A program made the position numbers and the translations under genes. Below the pieces are notes generated by a model that searched no databases, was not told the origin of the DNA, and worked only from the letters and a program-made list of their open reading frames with translations. DNA of 28,879 bases from Escherichia phage Phi06_2987 S, in sequence record KM389287.1; one strand, 5' to 3'. Positions 1,320-28,879 of the stretch are shown here, piece by piece; the first letter of the stretch is position 1, and every line of letters starts with the position of its first letter.

Positions 1320-2429
1320 GTGTATAAGTTCACGCTTATAACTGGGAAAAAGAAAACTCTCGGTTCGGATCGAGTAATGGCTATCGCCATCGCCCGAGAA
1401 TATAACCTGAGGATGCGCCCTGAAAATACACCATCGATAGATTCATTAATTCGGGAATCGGGAGGGCTGAATGGTGAAGCCCACCCGTTTTCTGAACATG
1501 TTGATCGCATTATGGAGAGAGCGATCAAAGATGAGCAGCCGTCTAAAAGCACACTTGACGATTGGAATAATGATGCCATCAGGGTTAAAGAATTTTTTAA
1601 TAACATACCCGCATGCGATATTGAGCTTGAGCACGTAAATGCCTACATACGAAATTACCATTCTGAATCGTCGGCCAATGTTCAGAACCGAAAAGTTAGC
1701 TTCCTGAAAAAGCTATTCTCTTATGCTGTTGATGAATCGCTAATGATGGATAACCCTGCAACACGGAAAAAAATGCGGCGTGTCGATAAAAAGGTCCGCC
1801 GGCGACTCACTTTGGAACAGTTCTTGGCCATACATGCAGCTGCTGAACCTTGGCTGAAGACTGCAATGGACCTTGCCATACAAACTACGCAAGCGCGCCT
1901 GGAAGTTTCCCGGATCCGGTACTCGATCAAGGAACCTCAAGAAGGGGTTTGCGGCTGTGTATGGTTCGATCAGGAGGAGGCTGGCATATTCGGAACGCTT
2001 TACATTCACCGGCAAAAAGTGCAGCACAAAGAGGCTTCACACGTCGCTATTCCGATCGGCAGGGCCCTGAAAGAGATCATCGACAACAGCAGAGACAATG
2101 TGGCCAGTCCTTATGTTGTTCACCGGCTTCTGGAAAAGAGAAGCAATCCGATAAGTAAGGAAGTTAACCACCCAACACAGGTGGCCCCTGATTATTTGAG
2201 CAGGGCATTTTCAGAGCTGCGGGACCGGATAGGTGTAGCGGCAGAATTACCTATCAAAGAAAGGCCAACTTTCCACGAAATTAGAGCGCTGGCGGCTCAT
2301 ATTTTCGAAAGACAAGGTATCGATCCGCAGGCAAGGATGGCCCATAGTGATGCAAAATCGACAAAAATTTATACCCAGAATCATGTTGAATGGGTTGAAG
2401 TACCACATGCAGAAATAAAAATGGCATAG
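1320..2429 (+). CDS. int: tyrosine integrase (lambda Int family); N-terminal arm-binding segment lies in another frame from ATG 1249
   Basis: 369-aa ORF from GTG 1320 with a tyrosine-recombinase C-terminal region. The ATG at 1249 encodes MAARPRKKEYRHLPDYLF, which matches the integrase N-terminal arm-binding consensus but hits a stop at 1339. The two frames join only if the T7 run at 1298-1304 were T8. Confidence 0.9.
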   Translation: MYKFTLITGKKKTLGSDRVMAIAIAREYNLRMRPENTPSIDSLIRESGGLNGEAHPFSEHVDRIMERAIKDEQPSKSTLDDWNNDAIRVKEFFNNIPACDIELEHVNAYIRNYHSESSANVQNRKVSFLKKLFSYAVDESLMMDNPATRKKMRRVDKKVRRRLTLEQFLAIHAAAEPWLKTAMDLAIQTTQARLEVSRIRYSIKEPQEGVCGCVWFDQEEAGIFGTLYIHRQKVQHKEASHVAIPIGRALKEIIDNSRDNVASPYVVHRLLEKRSNPISKEVNHPTQVAPDYLSRAFSELRDRIGVAAELPIKERPTFHEIRALAAHIFERQGIDPQARMAHSDAKSTKIYTQNHVEWVEVPHAEIKMA

Positions 2430-2807: not shown

Positions 2808-3329
2808 TTACATTTTGTCTAACTGATATCGTGCGGCCACTAATGATACTCCGCATGCCTCAGCTACATTTTCAGCACTCATACCTTTCAGAACATTGGC
2901 ATGAATAGCCGGTACTAATAGCTCACCACTGAAACATTTGGCTTGCCACTCACTACTCTCAAAAGGGCGGATTTTTACCCCTGGAGCAGAACGCGCGAAA
3001 GCAATGTTCCTGTGCATGAGAAGATGTCCCAGTTCATGTGCGGCAGTCATCCTGTCACGCCCTACCCCATTCAAAGCACCCTCGTAAATGTCTTCACGAA
3101 GAATCAATAAATGTTCCTGTGGGTAGGTGAGACCGTGCGTCTCCCCCATTTCCTTCATCCCACCGATATGGAGTTCAAAATCTGGGATCAACTGAGGCAA
3201 TGCGAACTCAATCACCTCCATAACAGGAAACATCAGACCTGTAATACCGAAGGTGCTCCGCAGAGATCTGACGATAGAACGTATTGATTCGCGGTTCTGC
3301 GGGGGTACACGATAATCTTGTCCGCTCAA
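2808..3329 (-). CDS. ImmA/IrrE-family zinc metallopeptidase
   Basis: 173-aa ORF with an HEXXH motif (AAHELGHLLMH). TTG start preceded by AGGAGG. It begins 8 nt after the XRE gene stop, so the pair is likely an operon. Confidence 0.8.
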   Translation of the reverse strand: MSGQDYRVPPQNRESIRSIVRSLRSTFGITGLMFPVMEVIEFALPQLIPDFELHIGGMKEMGETHGLTYPQEHLLILREDIYEGALNGVGRDRMTAAHELGHLLMHRNIAFARSAPGVKIRPFESSEWQAKCFSGELLVPAIHANVLKGMSAENVAEACGVSLVAARYQLDKM

Positions 3330-3337
3330 AATGCCTC

Positions 3338-3697
3338 CTACTGCTGTTTTCGATTCAAAATCTGTCGTAAATTCCGGAAGTCTTCTTCATTTAACTCATC
3401 AAAACTACGAGCGAACGCAATTGCGACTTCACGAGCATGGTCGTTCTTACCTGACAAGCTGATCTCTACTGATTGCTGAGAGTCACGAGCTGCACTGATA
3501 AGCTTTTCTTTTTGTTTTTCATCCGCATTCAGATAGCCAATGATGCTATCAAGCACGGGTTTAGTGACCGCCCTTTTACCAGTTTCGATTGCTGAAAGAT
3601 AAGACGAGGTCATACCCATAGCCTCAGCCATGCTTTTAAGCGTAAGCCCCAGGTCTATGCGCATTTTTCTTACTGTCTTACCAAACGGCGTTAACAT
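3338..3697 (-). CDS. XRE-family helix-turn-helix transcriptional regulator
   Basis: HTH signature LGLTLKSMAEAMGMTSSYLSAIETGKR. Start at 3697 (MLTPFGK...) chosen for a GGAG Shine-Dalgarno; the track ORF extends to 3745 without a ribosome-binding site. Confidence 0.8.
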   Translation of the reverse strand: MLTPFGKTVRKMRIDLGLTLKSMAEAMGMTSSYLSAIETGKRAVTKPVLDSIIGYLNADEKQKEKLISAARDSQQSVEISLSGKNDHAREVAIAFARSFDELNEEDFRNLRQILNRKQQ

Positions 3698-3769
3698 AGT
3701 TGTATCTCCAGTGTGTCCAAGACCCCCATTACTCTTGGGTCTCATTTTAAGTTAACACGCTCCCGACAG

Positions 3770-3819: not shown

Positions 3820-3922
3820 CTTCAGTCTCGTGTTGATTGAAACGTAGGTTGTGTGAAGAAGTATGGGGAAAAACCAGCTGTAACCCATTGATGTGTATAG
3901 TGCGGATTTTGCAAAAAATGCA

Positions 3923-3938
3923 CTGTTTGCATATACAG
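3923..3938. promoter_or_regulatory. LexA (SOS) box candidate
   Basis: CTGTTTGCATATACAG fits CTGT-N8-ACAG with an AT-rich centre. It differs at one position from the box at 4731-4746. Confidence 0.5.
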
Positions 3939-3994
3939 TCAAATGTGTCGCAGCACCAGTATTTACAAGGGTTACAGCGGATTTATCGCAGTGA

Positions 3995-4040
3995 CATGGG
4001 GTGTCGGGGGTCGGAGGTTCAAATCCTCTCGTGCCGACCA
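3995..4040 (+). other. 3' portion (about 46 nt) of a tRNA-Pro gene; probable attP core
   Basis: CATGGGGTGTCGGGGGTCGGAGGTTCAAATCCTCTCGTGCCGACCA contains a T-arm (GGAGG-TTCAAAT-CCTCT), the acceptor 3' strand CGTGCCG, discriminator A and CCA. This matches my recollection of enterobacterial tRNA-Pro(UGG), including the Pro-specific G72 that implies a C1:G72 pair. No matching 5' acceptor strand or D-arm lies upstream, so it is a fragment. Confidence 0.7.
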
Positions 4041-4051
4041 AAAACACATTG

Positions 4052-4080
4052 AAAACCAGCCTCTTACGGCTGGTTTTTTT
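4052..4080 (+). terminator. rho-independent terminator following the tRNA fragment
   Basis: Stem CCAGCC / GGCTGG with loop TCTTAC, followed by T7. Confidence 0.7.
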
Positions 4081-4145
4081 ATGTTTGAAATTTGTACGGG
4101 GAATCATTGGGGAAAAATGGGGGAATAACTCCCGACATTTACACG

Positions 4146-4466
4146 CTACATTACAGGCGATTTATCGTCTTTAACTTGGTTAAGTGTATGTGTAAGAACG
4201 CCGTGTACCGTTACGTCATTCAAAGCTTCCCCTTCTATCGCTTCACCATCTTGAGTGATCAGCGCGTGGCCCATTAGCTTCACGAACTGGTTTCTCCCGT
4301 CCATGCTAACCAGCAACGTATCCCCTCCTTCTGGCTTAAGACTGACGTTTATAACGGCCCAGCCGCATGAAGTTTCAATAACCCGGCAGTTGTTATCTAC
4401 ACCGCAGATAACATCTATTGTCATGCGCTGCTCCTGGTAATCCATGGCTGGCGATGGAAACCCCAT
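4146..4466 (-). CDS. hypothetical protein (106 aa), second gene of a two-gene operon
   Basis: Track ORF whose start overlaps the stop of the upstream 79-aa ORF by 1 nt. No family recognised. Confidence 0.5.
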   Translation of the reverse strand: MGFPSPAMDYQEQRMTIDVICGVDNNCRVIETSCGWAVINVSLKPEGGDTLLVSMDGRNQFVKLMGHALITQDGEAIEGEALNDVTVHGVLTHTLNQVKDDKSPVM

Positions 4467-4705
4467 TAGAAAACCCTCCCCATGTTACGCAGGATCCAGT
4501 ATCGGTTCTCACTTCCGTTTGTCGTCTTATCGGCGAAGTCTGGCTGGTATCGTTCGATCCATGAATTTGCATCTGCCTGGCTGAAATGCCAGTGCCTCTC
4601 CTGCAGTTCAGCGATGAATCTGTCTGTATGCAGGCAGAGATAGCCCTTCGGGTTTTGCTGTATGGCCGCAATAAAAGCAGCACGAATATCCGGTTGACGA
4701 GGCAT
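4466..4705 (-). CDS. hypothetical protein (79 aa), first gene of a two-gene operon
   Basis: Track ORF with a GAGGG Shine-Dalgarno 7-8 nt upstream of the ATG. Its predicted promoter region overlaps the LexA box at 4729-4748. Confidence 0.5.
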   Translation of the reverse strand: MPRQPDIRAAFIAAIQQNPKGYLCLHTDRFIAELQERHWHFSQADANSWIERYQPDFADKTTNGSENRYWILRNMGRVF

Positions 4706-4726
4706 GAACGCACCCTCACTTGCTTA

Positions 4727-4756
4727 TTGACTGTATGCATATACAGTAGTATTTTT
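4727..4756 (+). promoter_or_regulatory. SOS-regulated promoter of the DinI-like gene (-35, LexA box, -10)
   Basis: TTGACT (-35, 4727-4732), 17-nt spacer, TATTTT (-10, 4750-4755). The LexA box gACTGTATGCATATACAGTa (4729-4748) overlaps the spacer. The gene 50 nt downstream is DinI-like, a classic LexA target. Confidence 0.6.
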
Positions 4757-4804
4757 ATGAAAACAGATCAAGCACAGGCAATTTTCACTTATGAGAGGAT
4801 CCGT

Positions 4805-5068
4805 ATGTTTGTTGAACTGGTTTATGACAAGCGAAATGTTGAGGGGCTCCAAGGGGCCAGAGAGATCATCCTGGCTGAACTAACGAAGCGGGTGCACCAG
4901 ATTTTTCCTGATGCCGAAGTGAAGGTAAAGCCGATGCAGGCGAACGGCTTAAATAGTGATGCCAGCAAAAGTGATCGGGAAAAGCTGAACCGTATGCTGG
5001 AGGAAATGTTTGATGAATCTGACATGTGGCTGACGTCTGAATTTCCAACTGTACGGCAGAATGGATAA
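4805..5068 (+). CDS. dinI: DinI-family (MsgA-like) DNA-damage-inducible protein
   Basis: 87-aa product MFVELVYDKRNVEGLQGAREIILAELTKRVHQIFPDAEVKV...DMWLTSE matches the DinI/MsgA pattern as I recall it. GAGAGGA ribosome-binding site upstream; the track ORF (from 4586) is over-extended at its 5' end. Confidence 0.85.
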   Translation: MFVELVYDKRNVEGLQGAREIILAELTKRVHQIFPDAEVKVKPMQANGLNSDASKSDREKLNRMLEEMFDESDMWLTSEFPTVRQNG

Positions 5069-5110: not shown

Positions 5111-5665
5111 TTAAGCCTGTCCCACCGGAAATTTTTTATAAAGCGTGCATACAGCGACATCATAAATTATTGCCACTTGTTTTCTATCCACGCCGTTTAA
5201 TATTAATCTCCCAGCTTGTGCCCATTGCTCGGGAGTTAATTTTGGACGTCTGCCACCTATTCGCCCTTTTTCCCGCGCCGCCGCTAATCCAGCCCGGGTG
5301 CGTTCGACGATTAACTCTCTTTCCATTTCCGCCAGCGCTGACATGATGTGAAATATAAAACGCCCCATTGGACTTGATGTATCAATGCTGTCCGTGAGGC
5401 TCTTAAAGTGAATGCCCCGCTGTCGGAGTTCGTCCACCAGCAGCACTAAATTTCGCATGCTTCGCCCGAGGCGATCTAGTTTCCACACCACCAGTGTATC
5501 GCCCGCATTCAGAGTCCGCAGAAGCTTTTTGAGCGCTGGCCGGTTCGCTACCGTCCCGCTCATTTTTTCTTCAAAAACCTGTTCACATCCTGCGCGTTCG
5601 AGAGCTTGGCGCTGGAGATCTGTATTTTGGTCATTTGTTGACACTCTGACATAGCCAATTTGCAT
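5111..5665 (-). CDS. serine recombinase, DNA invertase (Gin/Pin/Hin/Cin/Min family)
   Basis: MQIGYVRVSTNDQNTDLQRQAL... is the canonical invertase N-terminus with the catalytic serine context; the C-terminal HTH region resembles Gin as I recall it. ATG at 5665 preferred over the upstream GTG at 5674. Confidence 0.9.
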   Translation of the reverse strand: MQIGYVRVSTNDQNTDLQRQALERAGCEQVFEEKMSGTVANRPALKKLLRTLNAGDTLVVWKLDRLGRSMRNLVLLVDELRQRGIHFKSLTDSIDTSSPMGRFIFHIMSALAEMERELIVERTRAGLAAAREKGRIGGRRPKLTPEQWAQAGRLILNGVDRKQVAIIYDVAVCTLYKKFPVGQA

Positions 5666-5699: not shown

Positions 5700-6533
5700 G
5701 TGAAGTTATCGGCCAGGCCGGCCCGTGGCAATCTATTAAACGTCGGTTTGGGAAGCAGCGCTACAAGGAACGCGTACAGCTCATCTGGCGATATACTTTC
5801 TGTAGGGGATTTGGGCTTGGGTGTTGTTGCCCCTGCCGAACAAAACCGTTACGAAAACGCGAGATTAAATGGCTTTTATAACATTGCCTCTGGTTCCGGC
5901 AACGGCCTGCCAACTAATGATGCGGGCTACGGTGTCTGGATGAACCGAAGCTCAAATTACGGCACCTTTGAGTGCTGGCTAAGTGGGCCTGTCGGGAGAA
6001 AAATGTTTAGCCAGGTTATAGGCGGAACAGCAGGTAAATGGTATGAATTTTACCATACAGCTAATACGACAAAAGCCAGTGACGGCACTATCAAAGCTGC
6101 CTCCCCCGTGGCACGAATTGTAACGAGCAAGGATGAGTGCCAGCGTGCTGATATAGCGGAGGATGGTTTTACCTGGTGCGGCTGCGGTGCGGCGAATGCC
6201 GAGGCTGAGGGCATTACTATTTCACGGCTTGATGTCGGCGTTTATGTTCTCACAGGTTCGGCAGGCCTGGCGTCTGAGGGATGGCAGTTACTTCCCCCAA
6301 TGGACCCTGGCGGCATGGGGGAACTGGGTGTAGTTGAGGCAGAGCAAACCGATAGCGGTGGGCTGACTATCCGTCTGTATAAACGCAAATACATCCTGAG
6401 CGATGAAGGTGAAATCATCAAAACCAAAGGTGAACCGATGGACGTACCGGCGAACAGCTGGATCGATGTTCGCTTGGATATGCCCGCAGATTCACTGTTT
6501 AACCAGCGGATGAGCCAGAAGCCGGAGATTTAG
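5700..6533 (+). CDS. alternative tail fiber C-terminal cassette C (likely start-less in this orientation)
   Basis: From site 1 the frame reads ...NVGLGSSATRNAY..., parallel to ...NLGLGSSATKDVG... at the crossover point in the expressed tail fiber. Its C-terminus (VPANSWIDVRLDMPADSLFNQ) and an internal block (TANTTKASDGTIKAASPV) are homologous to cassette A. The ATG at 5700 is probably fortuitous. Confidence 0.65.
   Translation: MKLSARPARGNLLNVGLGSSATRNAYSSSGDILSVGDLGLGVVAPAEQNRYENARLNGFYNIASGSGNGLPTNDAGYGVWMNRSSNYGTFECWLSGPVGRKMFSQVIGGTAGKWYEFYHTANTTKASDGTIKAASPVARIVTSKDECQRADIAEDGFTWCGCGAANAEAEGITISRLDVGVYVLTGSAGLASEGWQLLPPMDPGGMGELGVVEAEQTDSGGLTIRLYKRKYILSDEGEIIKTKGEPMDVPANSWIDVRLDMPADSLFNQRMSQKPEI
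5731..5756. other. invertase crossover site 1 (gix-like), inverted relative to sites 2 and 3
   Basis: ATCTATTAAACG-TC-GGTTTGGGAAGC. Its reverse complement shares cTTCC(c/t)AAACC-GA with sites 2 and 3. It lies 78 bp upstream of the invertase start, at the 5' end of cassette C. Confidence 0.65.
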
Positions 6534-7128
6534 CGTCGCCCTCTAATGCGCTGACGCGGATTGCCAGCTCTTTGATTGCCGCCAGCGCATCGAGCACCAG
6601 AGGATTGAGGTCTAGGGTCATTTTCCCCGACTCCTCAGCCGAGTGAACATATTGCGGATCTATCTTTTCCAGTTCCTGAGCAACAACACCTCGGCGTATC
6701 GTTTTCTCTTCATCAGCAAGGTAGTAGAAGGTCTTAAAATCCATTGCCACGATGTTGGCCAGAGACACTTCTAAATTAAGTTCTCCAGTAACCTTCTTGA
6801 AATTTATGTCCGATGTACCTGCAGACTGCAGCTGCGCCCACGGCACTGATGATTTTGGTGTTTGAGGGTCAGTGGTTGTTAGAAAACGGCTGAATACCGC
6901 ACTACCGTAAGTAATCCACAGCTGCGCAATTCGCTGCTCGGTGTAGGAACTCTGAAACCCACAGCCATTCGTAGGAGCCCACAGAGTATTGCCATCAGCA
7001 TCACTGATGAAGGATGAACTGGCATCTGTGGGCTTATTTTGGAGAACAGCACCAACCCCAAAAGCTCCCACCTGCATAACATTCCCTGCCGCAGTTCCGA
7101 CATCCTTTGTCGCACTACTTCCTAAACC
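6499..7128 (-). CDS. alternative tail fiber C-terminal cassette B with a peptidase S74-like intramolecular chaperone domain; no start codon of its own
   Basis: The frame is open from crossover site 2 (…KVGLGSSATKDVGTAAGNVMQVGAFGVGA…), with an in-frame TGA immediately upstream and no ATG before the shared motif. The C-terminal part (FKTFYYLADEEKTIRRGVVAQELEKIDPQYVH...LVLDALAAIKELAIRVSALEG) resembles the auto-cleaving chaperone domain of phage fibers and spikes. The track ORF is 6499..7077. Confidence 0.6.
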   Translation of the reverse strand, partial: GLGSSATKDVGTAAGNVMQVGAFGVGAVLQNKPTDASSSFISDADGNTLWAPTNGCGFQSSYTEQRIAQLWITYGSAVFSRFLTTTDPQTPKSSVPWAQLQSAGTSDINFKKVTGELNLEVSLANIVAMDFKTFYYLADEEKTIRRGVVAQELEKIDPQYVHSAEESGKMTLDLNPLVLDALAAIKELAIRVSALEGDAKSPASGSSAG

Positions 7129-7142
7129 GACCTTTATTCACC
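7119..7142. other. invertase crossover site 2 (gix-like)
   Basis: TTCCTAAACC-GA-CCTTTATTCACC. The conserved half-site and about 25 nt of adjacent coding sequence are nearly identical to site 3 (2 mismatches over about 37 nt). It sits 13 nt past the stop of the expressed tail fiber. Confidence 0.6.
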
Positions 7143-8489
7143 TTAATCGGCCGTCTCGGCCAGCTCTGCAGCTCTGAGTTTTTGGTTGTATAAAGAATCA
7201 ACAGGCATTTCGACACGGACGGACACAAACTGATCGGAGGGAATATCTACCGGATCGCCATCGTTGATACCCGGCAGCTCGTTCCTGGCGAATGCTGGTG
7301 CTTCAGGATGTGTGCGGTGATAGGTTTTAACCAGCACAGAGCCATCCGCGTTAACCTCATAATCCAACCAGACAAGCGCCTGCTTGTTGCGGTCGGTGGG
7401 GATGTCAAAACCGCCATCAATACCACCCCAGGCAGCGTCTGAATTTAGCCCCTCGCATCCTTCAACCAGATATTCACCAGTGCCCAGGCGGGTTACAGTG
7501 CAGCCCTCAGACTCATCGTTTGTGTGGCACTCGCCATTCATAAAAATTTTCACAACTGGTGATGCAGCTTTAAGCGTGCCATCACTGGCCCTGGTCGTAT
7601 TAGCTGTGCCGTAGAGTGTGTTAAATGTCGAGGTGCTACTTGATCCGGAGGTATTTCTCGCTAACACCCCAACAACGCCTGAATCATAGGCAACACTCAT
7701 AATCGCGTGTGTGTCTTCAGAAGCAAAATATAATGATGCTGAATATGCCCTTTGAGAGTTAACAGATTTGTTGTTGCGAAAGACTCGAGTACCTTTGTCT
7801 AAGAGGTTTGCCCATACATCAGCAACGGTATCTGCATTAAAGGATAGCCCTTTCCCCCCGAACCCAAACGCACCTACTTCCATGATGTTTCCGACGGATG
7901 TTCCGACGTCCTTTGTCGCGCTACTTCCTAAACCGAGGTTTGTGCGAGCGTCTGATGCAGTTTTCGAACCTGTTCCGCCCAGAGATACAGGCACTACACC
8001 ATCTGTAAACCCCAGGTTGCTTCTGGCGTCAGCGGCATTCGTTGCCCCGGTCCCGCCGTCCGAAACTCCAATCGCCCCATTGCTCCCTTTCTGGACCAGT
8101 TTGCCGATCGCCGGAATGGTTACACGAGCGCCGTTGATGGTGACGGTGATGTTCTGGTTTGCTGAGGTAGTGGCGAACGTCTCCCACGCGCCAATATTCT
8201 CGTCATATTCTTTGATGAGCTGCGACATTGCCTGGGCCAGTCCGTCGACGGAGATAATGTCTGACACCAGAATGGCGTATTTCTGGCCGCTCAGCGCCGG
8301 AGAAGCTGCAGGCGTAATCGTCATTGACGTGGCGCTGTTCACGGATGAAATCTGGAACAGCTGCACCGGGTTAGACATCACGATAATCGTCTGGCCAGCG
8401 CGAACCTGGCTGGCCGGTGCAGTCCAGTTTGTACCGGATCCGGTTGCGGTATTTCCGTTAATAGAGATAGTTCCTGTGTTATAAAGCAT
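7143..8489 (-). CDS. side tail fiber protein (constant N-terminal part plus currently fused C-terminal cassette A)
   Basis: Start at 8489 (MLYNTGTISINGNTATGSGTNW) with a GGAG ribosome-binding site. Contains phage tail fiber repeat-like motifs (…ARSNLGF…SLGGTGSKTASDARTNLGLGSSATKDVGT…). Crossover site 3 lies inside the gene. The track ORF extends to 8534. Confidence 0.85.
   Translation of the reverse strand: MLYNTGTISINGNTATGSGTNWTAPASQVRAGQTIIVMSNPVQLFQISSVNSATSMTITPAASPALSGQKYAILVSDIISVDGLAQAMSQLIKEYDENIGAWETFATTSANQNITVTINGARVTIPAIGKLVQKGSNGAIGVSDGGTGATNAADARSNLGFTDGVVPVSLGGTGSKTASDARTNLGLGSSATKDVGTSVGNIMEVGAFGFGGKGLSFNADTVADVWANLLDKGTRVFRNNKSVNSQRAYSASLYFASEDTHAIMSVAYDSGVVGVLARNTSGSSSTSTFNTLYGTANTTRASDGTLKAASPVVKIFMNGECHTNDESEGCTVTRLGTGEYLVEGCEGLNSDAAWGGIDGGFDIPTDRNKQALVWLDYEVNADGSVLVKTYHRTHPEAPAFARNELPGINDGDPVDIPSDQFVSVRVEMPVDSLYNQKLRAAELAETAD
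7925..7948. other. invertase crossover site 3 (gix-like), inside the tail fiber gene
   Basis: TTCCTAAACC-GA-GGTTTGTGCGAG. This resembles the Mu gix site (recalled as TTCCTGTAAACC-GA-GGTTTTGGATAA). The central dinucleotide falls in codon positions 2-3 of the Leu in ...TNLGLG.... Confidence 0.65.
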
Positions 8490-8500
8490 ATTTTCTCCAG

Positions 8501-8527
8501 GCAATAAAAAACCCCGCCGAGGCGAGG
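8501..8527 (-). terminator. rho-independent terminator between the lipoprotein gene and the tail fiber gene
   Basis: On the minus strand: CCTCGCC-TC-GGCGGGG followed by TTTTTT. Confidence 0.45.
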
Positions 8528-8547
8528 TTTGCATTGAAAGTCATGAG

Positions 8548-28698: not shown

Positions 28699-28879
28699 GG
28701 CTTACTCCTGGCAAAAAACAGAGAAAGGAAACAATCAACGGTAAACTTCCGTTTTCCTTGCTCAGCATTTCCTTTCTGGAGAGAGGACGTTTTTAACAAA
28801 AACAATGAGTAAACAAGAAGAAGAACGGAAATGGCATAAACCAGAAAATTTTCATAAATAGCGAGAATCTGCGCGGACG
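28699..28879 (-). other. cos region (cosB-like terminase binding region; cosN at or just beyond the window end)
   Basis: The minus-strand sequence upstream of Nu1 (…TCGCTATTTATGAAAATTTTCTGGTTTATGCCATTTCCGTTCTTCTTC…) is closely similar to the lambda cosN-proximal/cosB region as I recall it. By lambda spacing, cosN would sit at the last few bases of the window or just past it. Confidence 0.6.

Follow-up and report, generated by a model that had tools for sequence, protein, structure and literature searches.

The switching of phage tail fibre tips by DNA invertases is textbook biology. In the G/Gin system of Mu, a small serine invertase, of the same type as in C/Cin of P1 and P/Pin of e14, acts on a crossover site that lies inside the fibre open reading frame (ORF), which consists of a constant N-terminal part followed by alternative C-terminal parts. 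These three systems have two sites and two alternatives, with a Tfa/U gene in each invertible half, and in Mu the fibre is that of a myovirus. The Min system of the plasmid p15B, reportedly described by Sandmeier, Iida and Arber in 1992, undergoes multiple inversions. Its six sites allow many isomers, and its fibre is of the P1 type, with partners of the Tfa type. In all the classical switches known to us, every tip comes with an assembly chaperone that is encoded by a gene of its own. The locus described here lies in a 28,879-nucleotide stretch of Escherichia phage Phi06_2987 S (KM389287.1), referred to as a whole as the window, and, unlike that of Mu, belongs to a lambdoid side tail fibre gene downstream of cor. 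It combines an end-to-end homologue of Gin with three crossover sites and three single-ORF cassettes, named A, B and C, one of which (the silent cassette B) carries a cis-acting intramolecular chaperone of the S74 type. It is well supported that the locus works by the mechanism known from the Mu G, P1 C and e14 P switches, with three sites in a manner resembling p15B Min; the novelty, which is only mildly surprising, lies in the lambdoid side tail fibre, in the single-ORF cassettes lacking a Tfa gene, and in the mixture of an S74 tip with tips that have no chaperone. The likeness to Min consists of more than two crossover sites, several fibre 3' segments, and one Din-family invertase, and because both systems have more than two sites, some ends are only reached by successive inversions. 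The differences are the number of sites (six in Min, three here), the four isomers, all of which have been observed, and the presence of an S74-bearing cassette.

Two other phages, LLS (PQ299149) and mEpX1, have the same neighbourhood, with J, small genes, the side tail fibre, an opposed fibre segment and an invertase, as well as the same repeat sequence at the crossover, but they hold two cassettes and two sites where the window holds three of each. The invertase region of LLS is about 84% identical in DNA to that of the window. LLS is a plaque-forming phage in which (L006, 4629-7068) the expressed tip belongs to the Pfam family PF25670 and the silent tip carries S74 (Pfam E = 1e-9). The paper on LLS (Genome Res 2025, PMC12315714) notes the invertase and the opposed fibre genes and proposes a switching of tips like that of Mu and P1; it does not mention the S74 chaperone of the silent cassette. 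A systematic survey of inversions (PMC9881135) lists tail fibre genes and makes no mention of chaperones, and literature searches on invertases or inversion in combination with intramolecular chaperones or S74 turned up no account of a fibre cassette that is invertible and bears an S74 domain.

Cassette B is interpreted here, with a probability of roughly 0.85, as one of three invertase-switched 3' ends of the lambdoid side tail fibre gene, whose S74 chaperone would fold the tip and then remove itself. The expressed gene is best read at 7143-8489 on the minus strand, encoding 448 aa from the start MLYNTG, which has a ribosome-binding site, follows a hairpin at 8509-8530, and agrees with the starts of the coding sequences (CDS) of relatives in RefSeq. 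The hairpin, on the minus strand between cor and the fibre gene, is terminator-like and corresponds to a feature labelled 'terminator' in HK/mEp phage records, and both cor and a J-type tip gene lie upstream of the fibre gene on the same strand. The first 186 aa from MLYNTG (7932..8489, minus strand) form the constant N-terminal part, which is kept in all fusion forms. The rest of the gene is cassette A, the tip expressed in the window (7143..7931, minus strand; 262 aa plus stop), and behind it comes the silent cassette B (6499..7137, minus strand), in which translation, Pfam, homologues and a fold search distinguish a stretch of junction homology, a knob-like tip, and the S74 intramolecular chaperone. 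Further downstream are found the silent cassette C, a fibre fragment inverted relative to the fibre gene (5748..6533, plus strand; 261 aa plus stop), and then a serine recombinase gene (5111..5665, minus strand). The cassettes adjoin, as do A, with its stop at 7143, and B, which runs from 7137, or overlap, as do the tails of B and C at 6499-6533. The B and C frames converge in this overlap of 35 bp, which touches only the short variable tails past the ends of the conserved domains. The B and C pair moves as a single 1.4-kb module and recurs, with 99.8% identity, in L015 and L016, phages whose constant parts differ.

The recombinase is a Gin-like serine DNA invertase with the Pfam domains Resolvase and HTH_7, of 184 aa when read from the ATG at 5665 (the mechanical ORF starts at GTG 5674). 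Its residues 1-182 align with residues 1-182 of Mu Gin (chains 3uj3/4m6f) with E = 1e-86, and it is 100% identical to the invertase of the prophage of E. coli ABWA45. It would presumably depend on Fis and on a recombinational enhancer in the 5' part of its gene. Three crossover sites surround the cassettes, given here as read on the plus strand. Site s1 (7923..7948), inside the fibre ORF, is ACTTCCTAAACC-GA-GGTTTGTGCGAG; s2 (7117..7142), just after A, is a direct repeat of s1 with the sequence ACTTCCTAAACC-GA-CCTTTATTCACC; and s3 (5731..5756, with its core at 5738-5749), adjoining the invertase gene, is inverted relative to the other two and reads ATCTATTAAACG-TC-GGTTTGGGAAGC. The three have in common a core of the type AAACC-GA-GGTTT, which is also that of gix, with the same central dinucleotide, and they share the cassette-side half-site (A/G)CTTCC(T/C)AAACC-GA. 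As direct repeats, s1 and s2 are 76% identical along a stretch of 84 bp, the inverted repeat is of 35 bp, and all three cassettes carry on the frame as ...RTNLG|LGSSAT.... A scan of the 28.9-kb window for the core, allowing 2 mismatches, found the three sites of the locus and one unrelated match at 28743, far from it.

The constant part contains, at 7932-8100, two consecutive GGTG...AR.NLG units, the second of which ends in crossover site s1; relatives of 368 aa have a single such unit and are 26 aa shorter. The first unit, GGTG...ARSNLG, contains no site core. It was considered as a possible fourth crossover site and rejected, since the spacing of the core is absent from its DNA (AACCTGGGGTTT) and no more than three sites of the locus emerged from the motif scan.

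In a locus composed of the constant part, a site, A, a site, B with inverted C, and an inverted site, inversions between oppositely oriented sites give, by enumeration, exactly four arrangements. Each of the four is represented among public assemblies, and for two of them the phage is the same one (99.5-99.9% identity). State 0 is that of the window, with A expressed and B co-oriented behind it. In state 1, C is expressed, and this is the case of the public contigs L012, L013 and L018, which hold the same phage (99.5-99.9%) with positions 5738-7941 of the window (2204 bp), bounded by s1 and s3, inverted; the constant part is thereby fused to C, which forms the expressed end of a 447-aa fibre in L012 and L013. 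State 2, with A expressed and C co-oriented behind it, is found in L011, L014 and L017, where positions 5737-7136 (1400 bp, B and C), bounded by s2 and s3, are inverted. State 3, in which B is expressed, is reachable from state 0 only via state 1 or 2. A two-step case is provided by E. coli H5 versus VREC0761: a related prophage occupies an identical chromosomal position in the two, and they differ by exactly the predicted rearrangement; the fusion of the constant part with B in VREC0761 is annotated as a 360-aa fibre and carries the S74 family PF13884. A one-step case is provided by ABWA45 versus L008-L010, where one 1400-bp inversion (99.93% identity) fuses B, and the B of the ABWA45 phage is 99% identical to that of the window. 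The exchange boundaries coincide with the central GA/TC of the sites. In addition, a search with the predicted fusion retrieved upwards of 90 PF13884-bearing fibres of the constant part plus B type in full-length form, from E. coli, Enterobacter, Lelliottia and Huaxiibacter, and in the best fused relatives, of 368 aa, the B part is 99% identical to B of the window. The initial annotation, which was made from the letters of the window, had proposed that one fibre gene could alternate between chaperone-dependent and chaperone-independent folding; the inversion isomers and the in-frame fusions of relatives support this in that the gene indeed switches between ends with S74 and ends that lack it.

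Versions with two cassettes, one with an S74 tip and one with a PF25670 tip, occur in Enterobacter cloacae (L007), in L015 and L016, and in phage LLS. In the related three-cassette loci of L003 (1720-2583) and L005 (2258-2905), two of the three tips carry S74, in one of these two together with a T4 gp36-like segment; the proportion of chaperone-bearing and chaperone-less tips therefore varies between phages.

The initial annotation had also suggested that B ends in a segment resembling the auto-cleaving chaperone of phage fibres, and a profile search of the B translation agrees with it. The family PF13884 (Peptidase_S74) matches residues 109-164 of B with E = 4.3e-9 and 37 bits, above the curated cut-off of 22 bits, and covers positions 1-57 of the 58 in the profile. 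Among PDB sequences, residues 105-200 align with the C-terminal chaperone of the L-shaped tail fibre chain 8hqz_d (E = 9e-7), pairing AGTSDINFKK in B with QGTSGIEYKK (T5-type GTSGIEYKK). In an alignment of 31 sequences, comprising B and 30 homologues down to about 40% identity, Ser109, Asp110, Lys114 and Arg148-Arg149-Gly150 are invariant. The catalytic pair Ser109/Lys114 lies in SDINFK at the start of the domain, with the lysine five residues after the serine, and was checked at the level of codons (6811-6813 for Ser109 and 6796-6798 for Lys114). The chaperone part, Ser109-Gly212 (6502..6813, minus strand), runs from residue 109 to the end of the 212 codons of B and stands at the C-terminal end of the fused relatives of 360-368 aa. 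The match of B to PHROG 1980 is confined to the C-terminal half of that family (profile 210-431 of 449), which is what a 3' cassette should show, and NCBIfam has no family for any of the three cassettes. That B carries an S74 intramolecular chaperone is, at the level of sequence, confirmed.

In T5 pb1, the bond between Thr1263 and Ser1264 is the scissile one, Lys1269 activates the serine, and the released domain of 133 residues covers the receptor site until it is cut off (PMC4690869). The GT|SDINFKK motif of B corresponds to Thr1263|Ser1264...Lys1269, and the scissile bond of B is accordingly predicted by this correspondence at Thr108|Ser109, where B would cleave itself. Besides this Thr|Ser-x4-Lys motif, the chaperone of B shares with those of T5 pb1 and the K1F endosialidase its C-terminal position and perhaps, to judge from a monomer model with weak fold scores, a body of helix and strands followed by a long C-terminal helix. 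It differs from them in that theirs belong to a fixed gene, whereas that of B lies on a stored invertible cassette alternating with chaperone-less ends, and in that the tip ahead of it is a knob of about 80 residues instead of the 'bullet' of T5 or the sialidase of K1F.

This knob, the variable and putative receptor-binding part of B, comprises approximately residues 30-108 (6814..7051, minus strand) and was delimited by structure prediction with AlphaFold2 (AF2), Foldseek and homology. It is modelled with a predicted local distance difference test score (pLDDT) of 70-89 and matches, in Foldseek, the fibre tips of the R1 and R2 pyocins (6cl5/6cl6) with probabilities of 0.98/0.85. The module formed by the knob and the chaperone is about 50% identical to the C-terminal fibre ends of many isolated coliphages. 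The AF2 monomer model of B as a whole (mean pLDDT 72) is beta-rich over residues 31-105, followed by a helix, strands, and a long C-terminal helix, and the best, though weak, PDB fold matches for it are the ICA domain of MyRF (7dc3), the chaperones of endoNF (3gw6) and GA-1 (3gud), and tips of pyocin fibres. The fold of such chaperones combines a mixed alpha/beta body with a long helix that forms a trimeric coiled coil. For cassette A, AF2 yielded a model too poor (mean pLDDT 49.7) to enter the fold search.

Cassettes A and C share an end different from that of B, as the initial annotation had noticed. Both have PF25670 (Phage_tail_C_2) at the fibre C-terminus, above threshold in Pfam (E = 2e-58 for A and 1e-31 for C), and finish in ...MPVDSLYNQ... 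and ...MPADSLFNQ..., respectively. In relatives, PF25670 terminates in ...MP(A/V)DSL plus 0-25 variable residues, and since so few residues follow this motif, there is no chaperone module behind PF25670 in them. Among PDB sequences, A is similar to residues 457-784 of SU10 gp12 (7z47_D; E = 3e-87), which is the proximal fibre protein according to its authors (7z47). This entry was discarded as a structure for the A domain, since only its residues 1-90 are built. Searches with Pfam and PHROGs found none of the Tfa-type families, including Caudo_TAP and other chaperone families, in the cassettes or in the tested ORFs from J to int, in line with the earlier claim that no separate tail fibre assembly gene is present. 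In this the locus departs from Mu, P1 and e14, where each invertible half has its own Tfa/U gene. The absence of both a chaperone module and a Tfa gene suggests that A and C would fold without any helper.

In the proposed mechanism, the Gin-like invertase would recombine s1, s2 and s3. Because s1 and s2 are direct repeats, B would need two inversions, either s1 with s3 and then s1 with s2, or s2 with s3 and then s1 with s3. The product of the fusion would be a 394-aa fibre made of the constant part and B, to which B would contribute a small knob-like receptor-binding tip together with the C-terminal S74 chaperone. If it acts like its counterparts in T5 pb1 and the K1F endosialidase, this domain would drive the folding of the trimer and would then cut itself off at Thr108/Ser109, with Lys114 activating Ser109, leaving the tip uncovered. 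A and C, on the other hand, have the PF25670 end without a chaperone module. With a chaperone in B and none in A or C, each cassette is a single self-contained ORF piece, and no Tfa gene would be needed inside the invertible DNA.

Some points weigh against this interpretation. Cleavage, trimerisation and a change of host range are all events that we infer for this phage, and the fusion of the constant part with B has been found in close relatives and not in a copy of this very phage. The fold matches of B are weak, with E values of 7e-3 or worse and template modelling (TM) scores of 0.22-0.39 for a monomer model; such scores are expected when a domain-swapped trimer is modelled as a monomer, but do not amount to proof. 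Finally, an ATG at 7077 within B is preceded by a weak purine-rich stretch, and in the orientation of the window B is probably co-transcribed with the fibre gene, with some free product being possible.

These last observations bear on the alternative that survives best, albeit with a low probability, namely that B is a gene in its own right. In the orientation of the window, a 192-aa ORF starting at ATG 7077 would then be translated from the transcript of the fibre gene and would give a free protein with the knob and the chaperone, acting, for example, as a folding helper in trans for the A and C fibres or as a receptor-blocking factor. On the minus strand, the frame of B continues uninterrupted from 7137 down to its stop codon at 6499-6501 (212 codons plus stop); its translation begins IKVGLGSSATKDVGTAAGNVMQVGAFG, continues ...AGTSDINFKKVTGEL, and closes ...AIKELAIRVSALEGDAKSPASGSSAG. 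It is preceded by a TGA at 7138-7140, 2 bases after the TAA (7143-7145) that closes the expressed fibre gene. Its 5' edge has no start codon, and the first in-frame ATG is that at 7077, 20 codons inside, so the claim that B lacks a start codon holds at the cassette boundary and fails for the frame as a whole. From this ATG, gene callers predict the 192-aa ORF, which is annotated as a CDS in several genomes; moreover, B points the same way as the fibre gene, nothing terminator-like lies between the two, and A and C have no recognisable chaperone. A standalone product is nevertheless rated unlikely because the ATG at 7077 encodes a methionine conserved inside expressed fibres (NVMQVGAFG in B versus NIMEVGAFG in A), because the homology with full-length fibres extends 20 codons upstream of it to reach the crossover site, and because a promoter scan of the B strand found no promoter-like site upstream of B. 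Of the two findings that the initial annotation had named as refuting it, the lack of a significant chaperone match and an independent promoter and start, neither emerged. Two of the four isomers hold B in the opposite orientation, in which it would not be transcribed. Full-length forms with B fused are plentiful, and S74 chaperones are known to act on the chain to which they belong (PMC4690869; reportedly also Schulz 2010).

Lower still is the probability that B is a decaying pseudogene, the disused remainder of a former fibre gene. The missing start at its 5' edge, its position behind a stop codon, and the existence of degraded remnants that retain cassettes (L011, L014 and L017) would fit with such a fate. 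However, the frame of 212 codons is intact, and its near identity (99%) to the B part of the expressed 368-aa fibres, with catalytic and structural residues invariant, speaks for a sequence in use. The identical 192-aa ORF is found on 14 public contigs in several arrangements, and s2 has the core and the central dinucleotide of s1 and marks real inversion end points. The explanation with the lowest probability of all, that the public arrangements are due to general homologous recombination or to assembly errors across repeats of about 35-80 bp, can draw on the length of these repeats (35 bp inverted; 84 bp direct, 76%), which suffices for short-read assemblers to go astray or for rare RecA events, but the isomers are found in complete long chromosomes and in independent samples, the exchange boundaries fall at the central GA/TC of the gix-like core, a Gin homologue is always adjacent, and only the arrangements permitted by inversion of oppositely oriented sites are observed.

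Beyond the fibre locus, the window is in the attP configuration (excised or virion). Positions 3984-4040 are identical to the last 57 nt, at the 3' end, of tRNA-Pro(GGG). The lysogen contig L012 has this tRNA in intact form (3363-3439), indicating that the phage integrates at that tRNA gene. This gene is presumably proL, and the gene next to the intact tRNA-Pro in L012 is taken to be yejM. The att fragment was identified by the comparison with L012; ARAGORN reported no tRNA for the window, and nothing meaningful came from Rfam, run with a permissive threshold, over 3850-4150. The window also contains an integrase (1320-2429, plus strand), a pair formed by an M78 peptidase and an XRE-HTH protein (2808-3745, minus strand) and, on the integrase side of the att site, an ORF (420-992) with a full-length match to an Rv2179c-like 3'-5' exoribonuclease domain (E = 7e-72). 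The interval from the att site to the invertase is occupied by an SOS-related accessory cluster (4146-5068), consisting of a UmuD-like gene (4146-4466, minus strand), a gene for a 79-aa protein (4466-4705, minus strand), and DinI within 4586-5068 (plus strand).

The same tRNA site harbours the prophage remnant of L011 (4351-8035), also present in L014 and L017. It retains only the UmuD-like gene, the 79-aa gene, DinI and the invertase, along with B, C, and an A truncated at its 5' end, has neither s1 nor the constant part, and abuts a 615-aa NapA fragment, with B and C inverted relative to the window. It amounts to an invertase and its cassettes with no gene to plug into, and recalls the Pin systems of cryptic prophages, recently reported to be linked to phage defence (PMC12529663).

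The locus, together with its relatives in prophages of E. coli, Enterobacter and Lelliottia, points to a leaner design of the tail fibre switch, in which each cassette is a single ORF piece, one type with a chaperone predicted to remove itself and another with none. It is improbable, although conceivable, that the chaperone acting in cis is what permits this group of lambdoid phages one Tfa-free piece of 0.6-0.8 kb per alternative, and that a silent co-oriented cassette also yields a free trimer of knob and chaperone from the conserved internal ATG 7077. If this were true, the trimer could, for example, help A- or C-type fibres to fold in trans or mask a receptor, and it would be expected in the two isomers with the silent cassette co-oriented just downstream of the expressed fibre. 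For annotation, fragments labelled as 'Tail fiber domain-containing protein' that adjoin prophage recombinases could be flagged as stored alternatives and not as separate genes. The cassettes may serve as compact, portable tip modules for engineering the host range of phages or tailocins, and the locus offers a natural side-by-side system for the folding of tips with and without a built-in chaperone on the same shaft.

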